A stretch of 64,000 bases of DNA from a virus. Under the pieces are notes generated by a model. It saw nothing but the letters and a program-made list of their open reading frames with translations. It ran no database searches and was not told where the DNA came from. The stretch lies in the IMG/VR virus record IMGVR_UViG_3300025395_000007; one strand, 5' to 3'. Positions 29,328 through 34,315 of this stretch are shown here, piece by piece; position 1 is the stretch's first letter, and every line of letters starts with the position of its first letter. Both the position numbers and the translations under genes were made by a program.

Positions 29328-29551
29328 GAAAAAGTTCAGAGATTATTAAAGATGTTATCGAATCATTAGAAAAACTTATTGATACTCTTGATGATGAATG
29401 GCATCATAATAATGAAGGTGAATGGAGAATGGCAGACAATATCCGTGCTAATGTTTTGCCATTGGCTAAAGAGAACTTTAAATTTCATTTAGATGAATAT
29501 ATTGATCGCCGAATCGAAACGTATGTAAAGGTCAAAAATGAGACTGAGTGA
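29324..29551 (+). CDS. Hypothetical protein
   Basis: Coupled ORF. Confidence 0.6.
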   Translation: MRKSSEIIKDVIESLEKLIDTLDDEWHHNNEGEWRMADNIRANVLPLAKENFKFHLDEYIDRRIETYVKVKNETE

Positions 29552-29698
29552 TAGGTGGTTTGTAAGTTGGATTTGGCCAAGGTATGGCGAAATATTCGTA
29601 TGGAATCGTACTAGATTTAATGGTGGTGGTTATATGTTTGGCGCCGCACCTTATACGTATTGGAGAATTGGTCCTATTTTTGTAAAAAGGTATATGTG

Positions 29699-29983
29699 AT
29701 GACTGATGCTAGAATAAAACTTCTTACTGAAGGTCCAGGCGGCATTATGGAAATGAAGCAGACGATTGCCAATAAGGAAGCTGAGATTGCTCGCCTACAA
29801 AAGTATCGTAACTTCGTAATGTCATTTTACTATGAACCAATGGAGCTAAGTCACCATAAACTACCGAGTCAATATAATCACTGGCAGCAAACTGCTGGTA
29901 AGCTGATATATCAAAATGAACCTGATACTGGATTTACTGATGAAGAGCTAGGGCATAGGAATACTAAAAATGAACAAGCGTAA
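29699..29983 (+). CDS. Hypothetical protein, paralog of the C-terminal part of 25581-25976
   Basis: GPGGIMEMKQTI.NKE.EI.RLQKY..FV...EP.ELS..K. Confidence 0.7.
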   Translation: MTDARIKLLTEGPGGIMEMKQTIANKEAEIARLQKYRNFVMSFYYEPMELSHHKLPSQYNHWQQTAGKLIYQNEPDTGFTDEELGHRNTKNEQA

Positions 29984-30446
29984 GTTAGTTACTGATAGAA
30001 ACAGTTTGACTGTCAATACTAAATCTTCTTTTCTTACTGAAGAAAATATCAAGAACATTGAAAAGCATTACAAGGCTACCTATCTCCTTGAAACGTGCGC
30101 TAAGGATCGTAACGGTGGTTGGGCTAACTTTCCAGCAGCTATCTTCTATACGGAAACAGCTCACCCAGAAGGTTCAAACTATTTTGCATTGTATGTTACC
30201 GAAGATAGGCAGCTGATGATTGCCAATGGTTTGTCTGCAGTAGAGGATGTTGTGTTTAAAGGTTTAGAAACGGAAGGCACTGTTATCTATTCTCGTTACC
30301 GTCATGATTATCGAGATGCTGGTAATGGAGCTTTCGTTGATGGTGGAAGAGATTATTTCCGATATGGTGGTGATCAATTCGATGATTATAACATTGTAGA
30401 GTTTGTGGTTAATAAAGATAAATTGGAGTTTAAAAATGCTGATTGA
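29970..30446 (+). CDS. Hypothetical protein
   Basis: YSRYRHDY...FVDGGRDY motif. Confidence 0.7.
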   Translation: MNKRKLVTDRNSLTVNTKSSFLTEENIKNIEKHYKATYLLETCAKDRNGGWANFPAAIFYTETAHPEGSNYFALYVTEDRQLMIANGLSAVEDVVFKGLETEGTVIYSRYRHDYRDAGNGAFVDGGRDYFRYGGDQFDDYNIVEFVVNKDKLEFKNAD

Positions 30447-30663
30447 TATCGATGCTGAGACAATTGATAAGATTTTTCAAAATACTTTGATTCAAGATTA
30501 TCGTATGCTGTTAAAACAGAAACAAGAGCTTACTGAAAAACTGACAACAGTGTCATTGCACCAATACGAGCTTGAAGATCTTAATGATACAGATCGTTGG
30601 CTTTCAGGTATAGGGATCATGATGGAATATTATATTGGTGCTAATTGGAAAGATAAAGTTTGA
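30436..30663 (+). CDS. Hypothetical protein
   Basis: ORF with a GGAG RBS. Confidence 0.6.
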   Translation: MLIDIDAETIDKIFQNTLIQDYRMLLKQKQELTEKLTTVSLHQYELEDLNDTDRWLSGIGIMMEYYIGANWKDKV

Positions 30664-30694
30664 CTTTTCTCTCTAATAAGGTATAATAAATATA

Positions 30695-30760
30695 TTGCTG
30701 ATGTTGATGACATCTAGTGGAATAGACACTGAGGACGCGGGGGCGGTACCCGCCGCCTCA
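30695..30760 (+). pseudogene. Remnant acceptor piece of a permuted tmRNA
   Basis: GGAC-GCGGG-GGCGGTA-CCCGC-CGCCTCA has the alphaproteobacterial tmRNA T loop but lacks CCACCA; it follows a TTGACT/TATAAT promoter at 30660-30687. Confidence 0.75.
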
Positions 30761-30799
30761 AAATTAATTTTATATAAATAAGTTAAAAAGGACATCTTT

Positions 30800-31351
30800 A
30801 TGGCTTATTATGTATATAAAATTACAAATAAAATAAACAGTAAATGGTATATAGGTAAACGCAAGCATATGTCGCCGCTTAATGATTCTTACATGGGTAG
30901 TGGTAAACTAATTAAAGCTGCTATTGTCAAATATGGTGTAGATAATTTTATTAAAGAAATATTACAAATTTTTGATACTAATGATGAAGCCGCTAATTTA
31001 GAGAAAACATTAGTAACAAAACAAGCTATCAATACTAATATGTCTTATAACATGCATGAAGGTGGACACGGAGGATTTGCGCATTTAAATGATGGCAGTA
31101 AAGCACATAAAGAGCGATCAAAAAAAGGTGCAATGAACTCTACAGGTAAATTACATCCAAATTGGGGTAAATCTTCGTTTGCTAAAGATGATCCAAGAAC
31201 TATTGAAATGTCTAAAAAAGCAAATGAAAATAGGAAAAAAAATGGTCTTACTAATGAGCATAAAGAAAAAATAAAAATTGCTTCAATAAAAAGAGAAGAG
31301 CAAAGAAGATTAACAGGTTATTATCAGAAAATGTCGGCTGATAATTATTAG
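30800..31351 (+). mobile_element. Free-standing GIY-YIG (Seg-like) homing endonuclease
   Basis: YVYKITNKINSKWYIG, YMGSG, KYGVDNF.KEIL, YN...GG.GG; late promoter TATAAATA at 30773-30780. Confidence 0.9.
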
Positions 31352-31576
31352 AAAATATACAAAATAGCTATGGACTCGGCTCTCGGATGCCGACATCTCC
31401 ACCAATTTATACGGGGATGAAAGGGATCGACATGGTATGGAGTATTTTTTTAGACATCGTGTGCAAACTACGTTAACGTAAGATAAAATTATCTGCAAAC
31501 GATAATTCACTTCTTGAGATGCGCCTAGCGGCTTAATCTCTTGGGTATGAGTTCCACCTCGAAACAGAACGGGCTC
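31330..31576 (+). ncRNA. ssrA: Circularly permuted (two-piece) tmRNA
   Basis: Acceptor piece ends CATCTCCACCA (31404); 8-nt spacer; coding piece starts GGGGATG (31413, G3:U70) followed by GAAAGGGATCGAC; tag 31495-31536 reads ANDNSLLEMRLAA*; terminal hairpin GAGTTC...GGGCTC. The 5' boundary is approximate. Confidence 0.92.
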
Positions 31577-31615
31577 ACTTTATAACACACAAAACACACA
31601 CAAAGGAGACTACAA

Positions 31616-31828
31616 ATGAGTACACCATACGATTTAAGATTTAATCTTGTTCATTTCGCAAGAGATCAACTTAACGCTGAATATCAGGCTGCTCTGGAAA
31701 AGATTATATTATCATATCCAGAAGCTTCCGAAGAAAAAACAAAATTAATTTCTGCTCTTAAATATCCAACAAAATCGGATATTATTAATCTTGCTGAAGA
31801 AATTAAAAAGTTTGTCGACAATAAGTAA
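31616..31828 (+). CDS. Small conserved-type phage protein
   Basis: MSTPYDLRF...YPT..DII.LAEEIKKFV; AAGGAG RBS. Confidence 0.75.
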   Translation: MSTPYDLRFNLVHFARDQLNAEYQAALEKIILSYPEASEEKTKLISALKYPTKSDIINLAEEIKKFVDNK

Positions 31829-31840
31829 TATAATTGGTCA

Positions 31841-31890
31841 CCTAGCGGCTTGATCGGAGTTCGGGAGGCACTTGGCAACAGAAGCCTCCC
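31841..31890 (+). pseudogene. Remnant 3' tail of a second tmRNA coding piece
   Basis: CCTAGCGGCTT.ATC repeats the tag end at 31524 (LAA*); hairpin GGGAGGC-ACTTGGCAACAGAA-GCCTCCC parallels CACCTCGAAACAGAA. Confidence 0.6.
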
Positions 31891-31903
31891 ACCTAATTTT
31901 ATT

Positions 31904-31980
31904 GGCCTCGTAGCTCAGCTGGACAGAGCAATGGATTTCTACTCCACAGGTCGGGCGTTCGAATCGCTCCGAGGTCGCCA
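31904..31980 (+). tRNA. tRNA-Arg(UCU)
   Basis: GGCCTCG/CGAGGTC acceptor, loop TTTCTAC, GTTCGAAT, CCA. Confidence 0.93.
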
Positions 31981-31986
31981 ATTTTT

Positions 31987-32078
31987 GGGGGTGGGTGTTG
32001 GTACACAGGGAGTCCTTATAAGGCTTTCAGCGGCAGATTACCGTTCTCGACAGGGTTCAAATCCTTGCACCCCTACCA
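31987..32078 (+). tRNA. Atypical tRNA with UAU anticodon (nominal Ile) and a long variable arm
   Basis: GGGGGTG/CACCCCT-ACCA acceptor; D arm GTGT-TGGT-ACAC; loop CTTATAA; V arm AGCGG/CCGTT; T arm CAGGG-TTCAAAT-CCTTG. Confidence 0.8.
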
Positions 32079-32093
32079 TCAATGGAGATTCAA

Positions 32094-32267
32094 ATGGAAG
32101 AATTATCTCTTAACTATTCTGTAGATATGATGAAAAAATACGCATTTATTGACGAACTGAATAATTATTTGAATATTCTTCCACCTGAAGATAAAGATAA
32201 AAATAATCCCATAATTGAATATATTGAGAAAAGAATTGCACACATTGACAAGAAATATAAAAAGTGA
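32094..32267 (+). CDS. Hypothetical protein
   Basis: GGAG RBS before MEELS. Confidence 0.55.
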   Translation: MEELSLNYSVDMMKKYAFIDELNNYLNILPPEDKDKNNPIIEYIEKRIAHIDKKYKK

Positions 32268-32271
32268 AAAA

Positions 32272-32499
32272 ATGGTTTTAGAATTGAAGACAAATACCTT
32301 TATCGAAGATATCGAAAAGCTTTGTAAAACTAAAAATTTAGAATATATTGATGCTGTTGTTCTTTGGTGTGAGAAAAATAAGTTGGAAGTAGAAACTGCA
32401 GCTTATTGGATTAAGAAAGACCCAGCAATGAAAGCGAAGATTCAAGCAGAAGCCGAGAATCTTAATGTTCTTAAACGTGGTGCTCGATTACCAATCTAG
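32272..32499 (+). CDS. 33: Late transcription coactivator gp33
   Basis: FIEDIE...YIDAVV.WCE...E.E.....K.KI..EAE.LN.L.....LPI; synteny 33-59-32. Confidence 0.88.
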   Translation: MVLELKTNTFIEDIEKLCKTKNLEYIDAVVLWCEKNKLEVETAAYWIKKDPAMKAKIQAEAENLNVLKRGARLPI

Positions 32500-32508
32500 G
32501 AGTATATT

Positions 32509-32736
32509 ATGCCTTATGTGACTACAGATGTTTGGGTGGACGATCTCGATATTGAAGATTGTGATGATGAAGAGTTGATCGATGAACTCAAGAGTCGTGG
32601 GTTTGAAGTTAGTAATCCTGGCGATAAGCTTAATATTGGAAACCTTTACACTACATACATGACAATGTCTCCTGAGTTCTTTGAGAAAGAACTGAAGAAG
32701 TTCTTTAATGAAAATCTAAATGTATATGTGAGATGA
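32509..32736 (+). CDS. Hypothetical protein
   Basis: DDEELIDELKSRG motif; AGGAG RBS. Confidence 0.65.
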   Translation: MPYVTTDVWVDDLDIEDCDDEELIDELKSRGFEVSNPGDKLNIGNLYTTYMTMSPEFFEKELKKFFNENLNVYVR

Positions 32737-33314
32737 TGTCAGCACTTGAATGTTATCAGGAATACCTCGCTCTGAAGAATCACTTCAGTAAACCTTCTTA
32801 TGATTATTTTAAATATAATGGTAAGGTAAGAGTTAATGCAAAAACATTCGATGCTCGTAAAGACAAATTGTTCTTTCAGAAACTAGCCAAACATCCAGAC
32901 GTTCATAGTTTCTTAATTGCTAATCTTTCTGAAAATGAAAAAACATGGATTAAAGAATTAGCATATTCTGAAGTTGCTGAAAAAGTATACAAAGATTGGT
33001 CGAAACGCCAACAGTCTTTGTCTTATGTTTTTAAACAGGATCTAACAAAACTTGACCCTGTATTAAAAAATAACTTCAATTGTAAAGAAGGCGAACATCC
33101 ACTTCTTTTGAGGTTATATCTAGGGAAAGAAATTTCTTTAGAAACACTATGTCTCTTATTAGAATTCTCAGGTGTTAAACAAAAATGGGATTCTAGAATG
33201 GAGTACGATTTGGTTTGGGAATCTCTTAAAACCAAAATTGAAAAATATACCCCTTTCATCAAATATGATAAAGACAAAATAGTTAAAATTGCGCTTGACT
33301 TTTTTGATGAATAA
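32733..33314 (+). CDS. 59: Helicase loader gp59
   Basis: YLALKNHF...YDYFKYNGK, RKDK.FF.KLA, ISLETL, KY.PF. Confidence 0.93.
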   Translation: MMSALECYQEYLALKNHFSKPSYDYFKYNGKVRVNAKTFDARKDKLFFQKLAKHPDVHSFLIANLSENEKTWIKELAYSEVAEKVYKDWSKRQQSLSYVFKQDLTKLDPVLKNNFNCKEGEHPLLLRLYLGKEISLETLCLLLEFSGVKQKWDSRMEYDLVWESLKTKIEKYTPFIKYDKDKIVKIALDFFDE

Positions 33315-33394: not shown

Positions 33395-34315
33395 ATGAAC
33401 TTTTCAAGTCTCAAGGCACAATCTGGCAAGAAGTCTCTCGAAGCTCTTAGCGCAGAACTAACTAAGCTTAGTGGAAACCAAGAATCAAAGGGTGCAGACG
33501 ATCGTTTCTGGACACCTACGGTTGATAAAGCTGGCAATGGCTATGCTGTTATCCGTTTTCTCCCTGCTCCCCCAAATGAAGATGTCCCATTTATTCGCAT
33601 GTTCGACCATGGTTTTCAAGGTCCAACTGGTTTGTGGTACATTGAAAATTCTTTGACAACTCTTGGTAAGCAGGATCCTGTTTCTGAGTATAACTCGAAG
33701 TTGTGGAATTCAAGCACTGACGATAAGTCTCCTGAACGTGCTCAGGCTCGTAAGCAGAAACGTCGTCTTCACTTTGTTTCTAACATTTATGTAGTTAGCG
33801 ATCAGGGTAATCCTGCAAATGAAGGTAAGGTATTCTTGTTTAAGTACGGCAAGAAGATCTTCGACAAGCTCAACGAAGCGATGAATCCTCAGTTCGAAGA
33901 TGAACAGGCGATGAACCCATTCGATCTTTGGGCTGGTGCAAACTTTAAGTTGAAGATTCGTCAGGTCGAAGGTTATCGTAATTATGATAAGTCAGAGTTC
34001 GATAAGTCTAAGCCACTTCTTGAAGATGATGAAGATTTGGAAAATGTTTGGAAGGGCGAACACTCTTTGAAGTCGTTCCTTGATCCTTCTAACTTCAAGT
34101 CTTTTGAAGAACTTCAGGGTCGTCTTTTGAAGGTTCTTGATGATGCACAGACACCTAAGAATAAGGTTGCTCGCGCAGAGGAAGAAGATCTTCCATGGGC
34201 TCGCGAAGATGCTGCTCCTAAGTTTAAAGAATCAGCTGCACCAAAGGTCTCTGCATCTACAGATGATGATGAAGATGATGATTTGATGGCCCACTTTAAA
34301 AGTCTGGCACGGTAA
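33395..34315 (+). CDS. 32: Single-stranded DNA-binding protein gp32
   Basis: DDRFW...DKAGNGYAVIRFLP, WYIENSLTTLG, YGKKIFDK, GANFKLKIR, NYDKSEF; acidic tail. Confidence 0.97.
   Translation: MNFSSLKAQSGKKSLEALSAELTKLSGNQESKGADDRFWTPTVDKAGNGYAVIRFLPAPPNEDVPFIRMFDHGFQGPTGLWYIENSLTTLGKQDPVSEYNSKLWNSSTDDKSPERAQARKQKRRLHFVSNIYVVSDQGNPANEGKVFLFKYGKKIFDKLNEAMNPQFEDEQAMNPFDLWAGANFKLKIRQVEGYRNYDKSEFDKSKPLLEDDEDLENVWKGEHSLKSFLDPSNFKSFEELQGRLLKVLDDAQTPKNKVARAEEEDLPWAREDAAPKFKESAAPKVSASTDDDEDDDLMAHFKSLAR

Follow-up and report, generated by a model that had tools for sequence, protein, structure and literature searches.

The 64,000-nucleotide (nt) stretch of viral DNA IMGVR_UViG_3300025395_000007 (IMG/VR), referred to here as the window, contains a two-piece transfer-messenger RNA (tmRNA) locus in which a 5' stub of one tmRNA allele (A) is followed by a free-standing SegB-like GIY-YIG homing endonuclease gene, by the complete permuted tmRNA of a second allele (B), and by a displaced end of A-type. 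We consider it likely that a mobile cassette, composed of the nuclease gene and a B-type replacement, invaded a resident A-type two-piece tmRNA gene by break repair. The features of the locus are given below; G001 is a nuclease-free relative and the L numbers denote related loci.

30660..30687, + strand: early promoter of the sigma-70 type, belonging to the resident tmRNA gene and now preceding the cassette as well (11/12 consensus match, 16-nt spacer)
30700..30759, + strand: 5' stub of the A-type acceptor piece, with leader helix and complete T arm (RF04321, 29 bits; 100% identical to G001)
30760..30799, + strand: cassette left end, with late-promoter box, ribosome-binding site and 5' hairpin arm (junction conserved in L003/L004 and L057)
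30773-30780, + strand: late-promoter box TATAAATA, upstream of the GIY-YIG open reading frame (ORF)
30800..31351, + strand: SegB-like GIY-YIG homing endonuclease gene, 183 amino acid residues (Pfam, PHROG, BLASTP)
31341-31579, + strand: complete permuted tmRNA B (RF04321, 82.2 bits, cut-off 47; RF01849, 60.5 bits, cut-off 50)
31341..31404, + strand: B-type acceptor piece, with T stem TCGGC/GCCGA, acceptor strand CATCTCC and encoded ACCA (Rfam alignment, pairing check, minimum-free-energy fold)
31405..31412, + strand: intervening spacer of B, 8 nt (74 nt in the A allele)
31413..31488, + strand: B-type 5' part of the coding piece, with GGGGATG, the partner strand of the acceptor piece, and the pseudoknot region (100% identical to L003/L004 to ~31488)
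31486..31580, + strand: L007-type 3' part of the coding piece, with resume codon, tag and first terminal hairpin at 31549-31576 (94-95% identical to L007-L010)
31495-31536, + strand: tag ANDNSLLEMRLAA, its frame ending in Ala-Ala and a stop
31616..31828, + strand: ORF70, small phage protein of 70 residues (homologues 51-99% identical directly after the tmRNA in L007-L014)
31836..31846, + strand: tRNA-Arg gene start of the L007/L003 type (11 nt), joined to the displaced tag end (the same bases open the complete tRNA-Arg of L007 and L003)
31841..31893, + strand: displaced A-type tag end (stop TGA) and second terminal hairpin at 31863-31890 (G001 tmRNA 3' end identical; RF01849, 33 bits, E 4e-7)
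31904..31980, + strand: tRNA-Arg(TCT), in the right flank common to G001 (ARAGORN; Rfam, 60 bits)

A nuclease gene between two tmRNA alleles

The Rfam covariance models were scanned over 29500-33000 with E-values up to 10, and gave the complete permuted tmRNA at 31341-31579 together with two partial hits, at 30700-30882 (5' part of an acceptor piece) and 31754-31893 (tag end and terminal hairpin). A first-pass annotation, made from the sequence letters, had listed a promoter, an acceptor-piece remnant, the nuclease ORF, a second acceptor piece, a spacer, a tag, a small ORF and a second tag end, and each of them was found at its proposed position. It had also predicted that a nuclease-free relative would hold one intact A-type ssrA gene.

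Such a relative is the IMG/VR record G001, which lacks the nuclease and whose A-type two-piece tmRNA is intact (Rfam, 137 bits). G001 and the window are 100% identical over the 860 bp of the left flank (29900-30759) and differ by one mismatch over the 763 bp of the right flank (31838-32600; 99.9% identity), while between these flanks G001 has 170 bp and the window 1078 bp (30760-31837). The locus is thus a presence/absence polymorphism at one site between otherwise near-identical genomes. The 170 bp of G001 provide the CCACCA, an intervening segment of 74 nt, the strand GGGGGCG, the pseudoknot region and the greater part of the tag, and both stubs of the window are the ends of the intact gene of G001 save one base, so the resemblance is not due to chance. 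All of the approximately 20 nuclease-free loci at the same position have A-type alleles. The hexamers of the early promoter are conserved in G001, L007, L008 and L011, and its spacer sequence varies among relatives. As a separate observation, an alignment with L001, L008, L011 and L014 shows mosaicism in the intervening segments of the tmRNA genes: the segment of G001 is also that of L011, and L008 and L014 have one in common, though the flanking tmRNA parts group otherwise.

The left stub retains the T stem (30737-30741/30749-30753), the T loop GGCGGTA (30742-30748) and six of the seven bases of the acceptor 3' strand (30754-30759); it ends 1 nt short of the stem end and has no CCACCA. The nhmmer acceptor-piece profile aligns to it from position 1 to 59 of 64 (E 1e-8). 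Its partner strand, GGGGGCG, had been called lost, and is indeed absent from the window and present in G001. A role of the stub as a functional tRNA-like decoy was considered and ruled out, since this 5' partner strand is not in the window.

Allele B has the attributes of a two-piece tmRNA: a score above the cut-off, a 7-bp acceptor stem with G3:U70, an encoded CCA and the tag frame listed above. CATCTCC (31394-31400) pairs 7/7 with GGGGATG (31413-31419) with the G3:U kept, in agreement with the pairing first proposed for it, and the minimum-free-energy fold recovers the tRNA-like domain. The T loop has 8 nt (31381-31388) instead of the canonical 7 nt, and 9 nt in L057. ARAGORN found three tRNAs in the window and no tmRNA over positions 1-64000, though Rfam detects a complete permuted tmRNA there; the miss is probably due to the T loop and the spacer of allele B, each of 8 nt, and loci of this kind would consequently be under-annotated. 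Alleles B and A differ in the T stem, the T loop and two acceptor-stem pairs, and the matching 5' strand travels with the cassette. The first helix of B begins at the stop codon of the nuclease gene (31349-31351). The suggestion that the 5' tmRNA piece is partly encoded within the nuclease gene is borne out in that the two overlap, with the stop codon in the first helix, although the overlap extends over only ~3-11 nt.

Allele B is itself a chimera, of B-type to ~31488 and then with an L007-type tag, tail and ORF70. Beyond ~31488 the window no longer matches L003-L005, and it is L007-L010 that match, at 94-95%, through the tag, the first hairpin, ORF70, the second tail and the tRNA-Arg. The description of B as a diverged replacement consequently stands insofar as it is diverged, internally coherent and from another tmRNA lineage, and has to be amended for its L007-type 3' part. 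A 16-mer scan for the B acceptor strand was unspecific (116+ matches), and after filtering it left nuclease-free tmRNAs with the same acceptor stem and the loci L057 and L070. L124 (8150-8460) shows a nuclease-free tmRNA whose T arm and acceptor stem are exactly those of B and whose spacer is long; immediately upstream of it, a stretch with homology to the final codons of the nuclease gene of L057 reads as a promoter-like TTGACA box. L124 either represents the lineage from which allele B came or arose by loss of the nuclease.

The left junction of the cassette separates ...GCCTC from CACCA and thus falls 5 nt short of the end of the resident CCACCA. A hairpin predicted at ~30765-30824, in both the window (region z -5.1) and L057 (z -4.6), pairs the late-promoter region with the first codons and would bury the ribosome-binding site and the AUG in read-through RNA. 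The old early promoter would read through the stub, the nuclease gene and allele B, giving both RNAs as well as the nuclease mRNA. Translation of the nuclease would come mainly from late transcripts, which lack the 5' arm of the hairpin, because the read-through RNA hides the start. Start occlusion in read-through RNA is the control scheme of T4 endonucleases (PMC2330249). In a large tmRNA-adjacent clade of nucleases (L192-L221), a conserved 5' leader is found ~35 nt upstream of the nuclease start, with TCGAA..TCGTC, then CATAAATAC and ATG; this leader is unlike the junction of the window clade and is probably a promoter or regulatory module of that cassette type.

The nuclease matches PF19835 (SegE_GIY-YIG) with an E-value of 5e-6 (27.2 bits, cut-off 25), PF01541 (GIY-YIG) with 9e-5 (23.2 bits, cut-off 22.6) and PHROG 314 with 3e-35. 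The alignment shows conservation of the catalytic positions of the GIY-YIG domain (YVY..YIG, Arg, Glu and Asn). BLASTP against T4 SegB gave an E-value of 4e-29 with 52% identity over 97 residues, corresponding to the N-terminal catalytic domain. The L057 homologue, of 256 residues, can be aligned with SegB over its full length at 34% identity, and this alignment takes in the C-terminal motif. The best matches of the nuclease in cultured phages are endonuclease genes in tRNA clusters. The 27 bp recognised by SegB comprise a T stem-loop motif, a degenerate central part and CCAR; cleavage takes place immediately 3' of CCAR, where tRNA genes end, and the stop codon of SegB abuts tRNA-Arg (PMC2330249). 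The tRNA-like domain of tmRNA has the same geometry as this target. From the specificity of SegB and the position of the junction at CCACCA, we infer that the nuclease would cut A-type genes near the CCA end.

Related loci and surrounding genes

From 30760 to ~31488 the cassette shares 96-98% identity with L003, L004 and L005, and the nuclease protein is 98-99% identical in these three loci and 60% identical in L057. L004 represents a different background (upstream gene 51% identical, flanks 51-81% similar) with the same junction after the acceptor strand. Its stub is chimeric, with a leader of the L013/L014 type and the last bases and acceptor strand of the donor type, which indicates a crossover inside the stub in this background. 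At its right boundary the co-transferred tract of the window differs from that of L003-L005. L057/L099, a distant T4-like phage, is collinear: it shows an early promoter, a stub with the same end, the junction with the late-promoter box, the nuclease and a replacement tmRNA. The same element and junction are thus found in diverged backgrounds with exchange of the flanking markers (L004 and L057). The tRNA-like domain of the L057 replacement is almost unchanged despite the 60%-identical nuclease, and this conservation between the window and L057 argues for selection on the replacement RNA and the junction region. Judged from these sequence comparisons, the cassette is mobile and old. A metagenome scan for close copies of it found none that was new and recovered only the L003 and L004 contigs.

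A homologue search with a three-sequence alignment gave 40 loci, and in 34 of them a permuted tmRNA begins at or just before the stop codon of the nuclease gene. An acceptor-piece stub upstream of the nuclease was detected with the acceptor-piece profile in ~15 loci; in the window clade it is long, extending to position 59 of 64, and in the large clade it is short and stops within the T arm (positions 38-45). Alignments of the upstream sequence of a locus with its own downstream sequence mostly stayed below the shuffle threshold, and the profile search detected more. A quick tree placed all tmRNA-adjacent proteins in two supported clades, with the six non-adjacent proteins and SegB outside; it did not resolve the two clades as sisters, nor the deeper order.

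L003 also contains a second GIY-YIG ORF of 179 residues (845-1384, - strand), antisense at the tmRNA 3' end, which is likewise found in L004 and L005. A single tmRNA locus can thus accommodate two endonuclease genes. The contigs with this antisense ORF show a different, longer tag (18 residues).

The right-hand side of the locus has another history. L007-L010 lack the nuclease and have intact tmRNAs (~110 bits), yet ORF70 and then the second tail are already present in them, so the right stub is older than the nuclease and independent of it. The first-pass annotation had read allele A as two stubs flanking the whole insertion; both A-type ends are there, but the right stub and the small ORF predate the nuclease event. 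The fusion of the tRNA-Arg start to the displaced tag end occurs at a 6-nt microhomology, CCTAGC, and the same junction is found in the nuclease-free L007-L010. On sequence grounds, this right junction is a microhomology join of a genome with the order tmRNA-ORF70-tRNA (like L011-L014) and a genome with the order tmRNA-tRNA (like G001). The second hairpin shows three compensatory base-pair changes between L007 and L008, and it is therefore probably still a functional RNA element and not a dead relic.

ORF70 is preceded by a hairpin, whose loop contains the conserved motif AACAGAA, and by a strong ribosome-binding site. No Pfam or PHROG match was found for its family, and in the Atlas it falls in large viral hypothetical clusters only; a match to EF-G-binding_N was disregarded as weak (E 0.035). 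To judge from the loci compared, ORF70 is not part of the nuclease cassette proper.

Downstream of the tRNA-Arg(TCT), a 92-nt tRNA-like gene with a long extra arm is found at 31987-32078; ARAGORN calls it tRNA-Ile(tat), and it is 90-98% conserved in L005, L013 and L014. No Rfam tRNA match to it lies above the threshold, and its L013/L014 homologues are tRNA-Sec-like with 38 bits, below the cut-off. The 3' domain of the Melnitz ssrA is called a glutamine riboswitch in the relevant passage of PMC9004378; no Rfam match to this riboswitch was found in 29500-33000.

The genome belongs to an uncultured T4-like phage, with gp32 at 33395-34315 and the late-transcription coactivator gp33 at 32215-32499 (Pfam PF16805). 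The identity of gp32 to its best cultured relatives is only ~55%. Megablast of 8 kb of the window against cultured phages gave no match, and blastn gave only short similarities to Seg genes and tRNAs. The related contigs come from lake metagenomes, and one of them is named TBL_comb47_HYPODRAFT. Two-piece tmRNA genes of the alphaproteobacterial type are known at the same position, after an early promoter and upstream of gp33, in Melnitz-like and pelagimyophage genomes, according to passages of PMC9004378.

Origin of the interrupted gene

The reading that we favour, with good confidence, starts from a cassette made of the late-expressed nuclease gene, the B-type acceptor piece, the 8-nt spacer and the 5' part of the coding piece. 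Acting as SegB does, the nuclease would recognise the T arm of the tRNA-like domain and cut near the encoded CCA of nuclease-free alleles, and repair of the double-strand break from a cassette-bearing co-infecting phage would copy the cassette in. The left crossover would fall inside the resident acceptor piece, leaving the 60-nt stub, and the right one in the conserved coding piece or further right. The matching 5' strand would be carried along and a working tmRNA kept. Allele B is probably not cut by the nuclease, and its altered T stem and 8-nt T loop may be what protects it, if recognition is as in SegB. ORF70 and the second tag end with its hairpin would come from an older illegitimate recombination in which the nuclease took no part. 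The proposal of intronless homing at tmRNA, already made in the first-pass annotation, is retained here for the free-standing cassette, which has replaced the interior of A and shows the same junction in other backgrounds, and abandoned for the right stub and small ORF, which go back to a separate event.

Several points weigh against this reading. The enzyme of the window, with 183 residues, lacks the C-terminal W-I...I-P-x-G-W motif kept by SegB and almost all relatives (213-270 residues), among them L057, L070 and the large clade. In comparison with L057 and SegB, ~70 C-terminal residues are lost in the window-type enzyme, which also has internal deletions relative to L057; a NUMOD3-like stretch remains. 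The enzyme may thus be weakened or inactive, and the loss of the motif makes its present-day activity uncertain. The presumed cleavage site is taken solely from the analogy with SegB, and the stub retains the whole A-type T arm, presumed to be the core recognition element of the nuclease, so that immunity of the invaded locus is only putative. Allele B has an unusual T loop and spacer of 8 nt each, and its tmRNA function is a prediction. Furthermore, only four near-identical copies of this exact cassette were found, apparently from one lake system, and the 1078-bp difference to G001 covers two modules of unequal age, from which a single founding event is not uniquely reconstructable.

That internal deletions, in comparison with L057, have removed the C-terminal motif of the SegB type would be expected if the nuclease were now an inert passenger, with the cassette persisting by ordinary recombination among co-infecting T4-like phages or by in-trans help from full-length relatives. 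The heavy mosaicism of the locus where no nuclease is involved, with shuffled intervening segments and a shuffled ORF70 module, points in the same direction. We nevertheless regard this explanation as improbable. The ratio of nonsynonymous to synonymous substitution rates (dN/dS) is ~0.14 among the near-identical copies, a value that derives from eight changes only, and ~0.1-0.2 against L057, a comparison in which synonymous sites are saturated (proportions of synonymous and nonsynonymous differences, pS 0.71 and pN 0.17). In addition, the ORF is intact, the start-occluding hairpin and the late promoter are conserved, and the same truncated form occurs with 98-99% identity in at least two backgrounds.

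A local tandem duplication of the tmRNA gene, with decay of the first copy and insertion of the nuclease gene between the copies by an unrelated event that involved no tmRNA targeting, would formally produce the same layout of a partial acceptor piece, an ORF and a full tmRNA, and in several family members the stub does resemble the downstream copy. In the window, however, the stub is identical to G001, and B differs from it in the T stem, the T loop and the acceptor stem, with matching changes in the partner strand. The recurrence of the junction in diverged backgrounds, the adjacency of 34/40 homologues to a tmRNA and the homology of the enzyme to SegB, a cutter of tRNA gene 3' ends, also make a duplication very unlikely.

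Group I introns, some of them with LAGLIDADG genes, are known in the T loop of tmRNA (PMC11915505), and the nuclease region could in principle be an intron or another excised element, with the outer stub still in use. No group I, group II or other intron model matched in 29500-33000, which agrees with the earlier statement that a group I core is missing; the insertion lies outside the T loop, the window contains no 5' acceptor strand with which the stub could pair, and the stub has no CCA and is followed by a promoter and an ORF. We give this explanation next to no credence. A chimeric metagenomic assembly of two strains with different tmRNA alleles, conceivable at a polymorphic, repeat-containing locus with two tag ends and two hairpins, has a negligible probability, since the left junction is also present in independently assembled contigs from different samples (L003, L004 and L057/L099) and the right junction in L007-L010.

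An extension of the homing of a nuclease and replacement cassette is put forward tentatively, and is rather doubtful. It is a self-limiting circuit of nuclease and tmRNA. The stop codon of the nuclease lies in the first helix of the B acceptor piece, so processing of the precursor into mature tmRNA would sever the mRNA of the nuclease at the stop codon or ahead of it; if true, this would leave a non-stop message whose product would be tagged for degradation by the cassette's own tmRNA. The cutting of an mRNA by RNA maturation has likewise been proposed for T4 segB and tRNA-Arg. The tmRNA locus would in that case be an arena for several endonuclease families that each bring, and rely on, tmRNA modules of their own, and these families (the 5' type described here and the antisense 3' type of L003 among them) would drive a modular diversification of phage tmRNA in aquatic T4-like phages.

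Comparison with known systems

In the literature searched, no description was found of a free-standing endonuclease inside a phage tmRNA gene. If our reading holds, an endonuclease can lodge in a structured RNA gene of the essential type without an intron, by carrying a replacement for the part that it displaces; the need for pairing between the two tmRNA pieces obliges the partner strand to travel together with the cassette. This would extend the SegB case, of a nuclease that reads a T arm and CCA, from tRNA clusters to tmRNA, and add a new gene form to the standard, intron-containing and permuted tmRNA genes. It would also explain why annotation tools miss or mis-call such loci, suggest a mechanism, open to experiment, by which the strong mosaicism seen in phage tmRNA genes could arise, and provide natural pairs of presumably cleavable and immune targets for studies of GIY-YIG specificity.

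The closest system is T4 SegB (PMC2330249), a homologous protein encoded by a free-standing gene whose stop abuts the next tRNA-like gene and which is read from an upstream RNA-gene promoter. Its target, a T-arm motif plus CCAR cut at the tRNA 3' end, fits the position of the junction found here, and the co-conversion of flanking RNA genes by SegB homing is a shared feature. SegB differs in that it sits between tRNA genes, none of which is interrupted, whereas here the insertion is inside a permuted tmRNA gene and shows a stub and a carried replacement. Furthermore, SegB keeps the C-terminal motif that the window enzyme lacks, and the activity of the latter is predicted.

A similar arrangement is known in fungal mitochondria, where mobile endonuclease ORFs (mORFs) carry a foreign gene C-terminus in atp6 of Allomyces and in atp6, atp9, cox2 and nad3 of Glomus (PMC3630166). 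In both cases an intron-less endonuclease element brings a diverged replacement and leaves the native part as an unused adjacent remnant. The window agrees with this pattern, as the stub is identical to G001 and the replacement is diverged and comes from another tmRNA lineage. However, mORFs affect the 3' end of organellar protein genes, while the cassette takes the place of the 5' two-thirds of a phage gene for a structured RNA, and unlike in mORFs, the pairing of the two RNA pieces forces the partner strand to co-travel.

The group I introns in the T loop of tmRNA (PMC11915505) are likewise endonuclease-bearing mobile elements that exploit the conserved tRNA-like domain, but they depend on RNA splicing and leave a single gene copy, whereas here no intron core is present, splicing is not required, and the carried replacement would keep the function. 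Integrase islands in tRNA and tmRNA genes (Islander), as far as the excerpted account of PMC4383910 describes them, also split an RNA gene, carry the restoring sequence and leave a displaced fragment that marks the end of the element. In the same account they use tyrosine integrases and near-identical att repeats at the gene 3' end in bacterial chromosomes, in contrast with the homing endonuclease, recombination repair at the 5' part and strongly diverged replacement proposed here. Finally, the two-piece tmRNAs of Melnitz-like phages and pelagimyophages are the same kind of gene, at the same place and of the same alphaproteobacterial type; in the passages of PMC9004378 that deal with them these genes are intact with no endonuclease insertion described, and the passages on endonucleases concern restriction enzymes, while the gene in the window is split by a homing endonuclease cassette that carries its own replacement.

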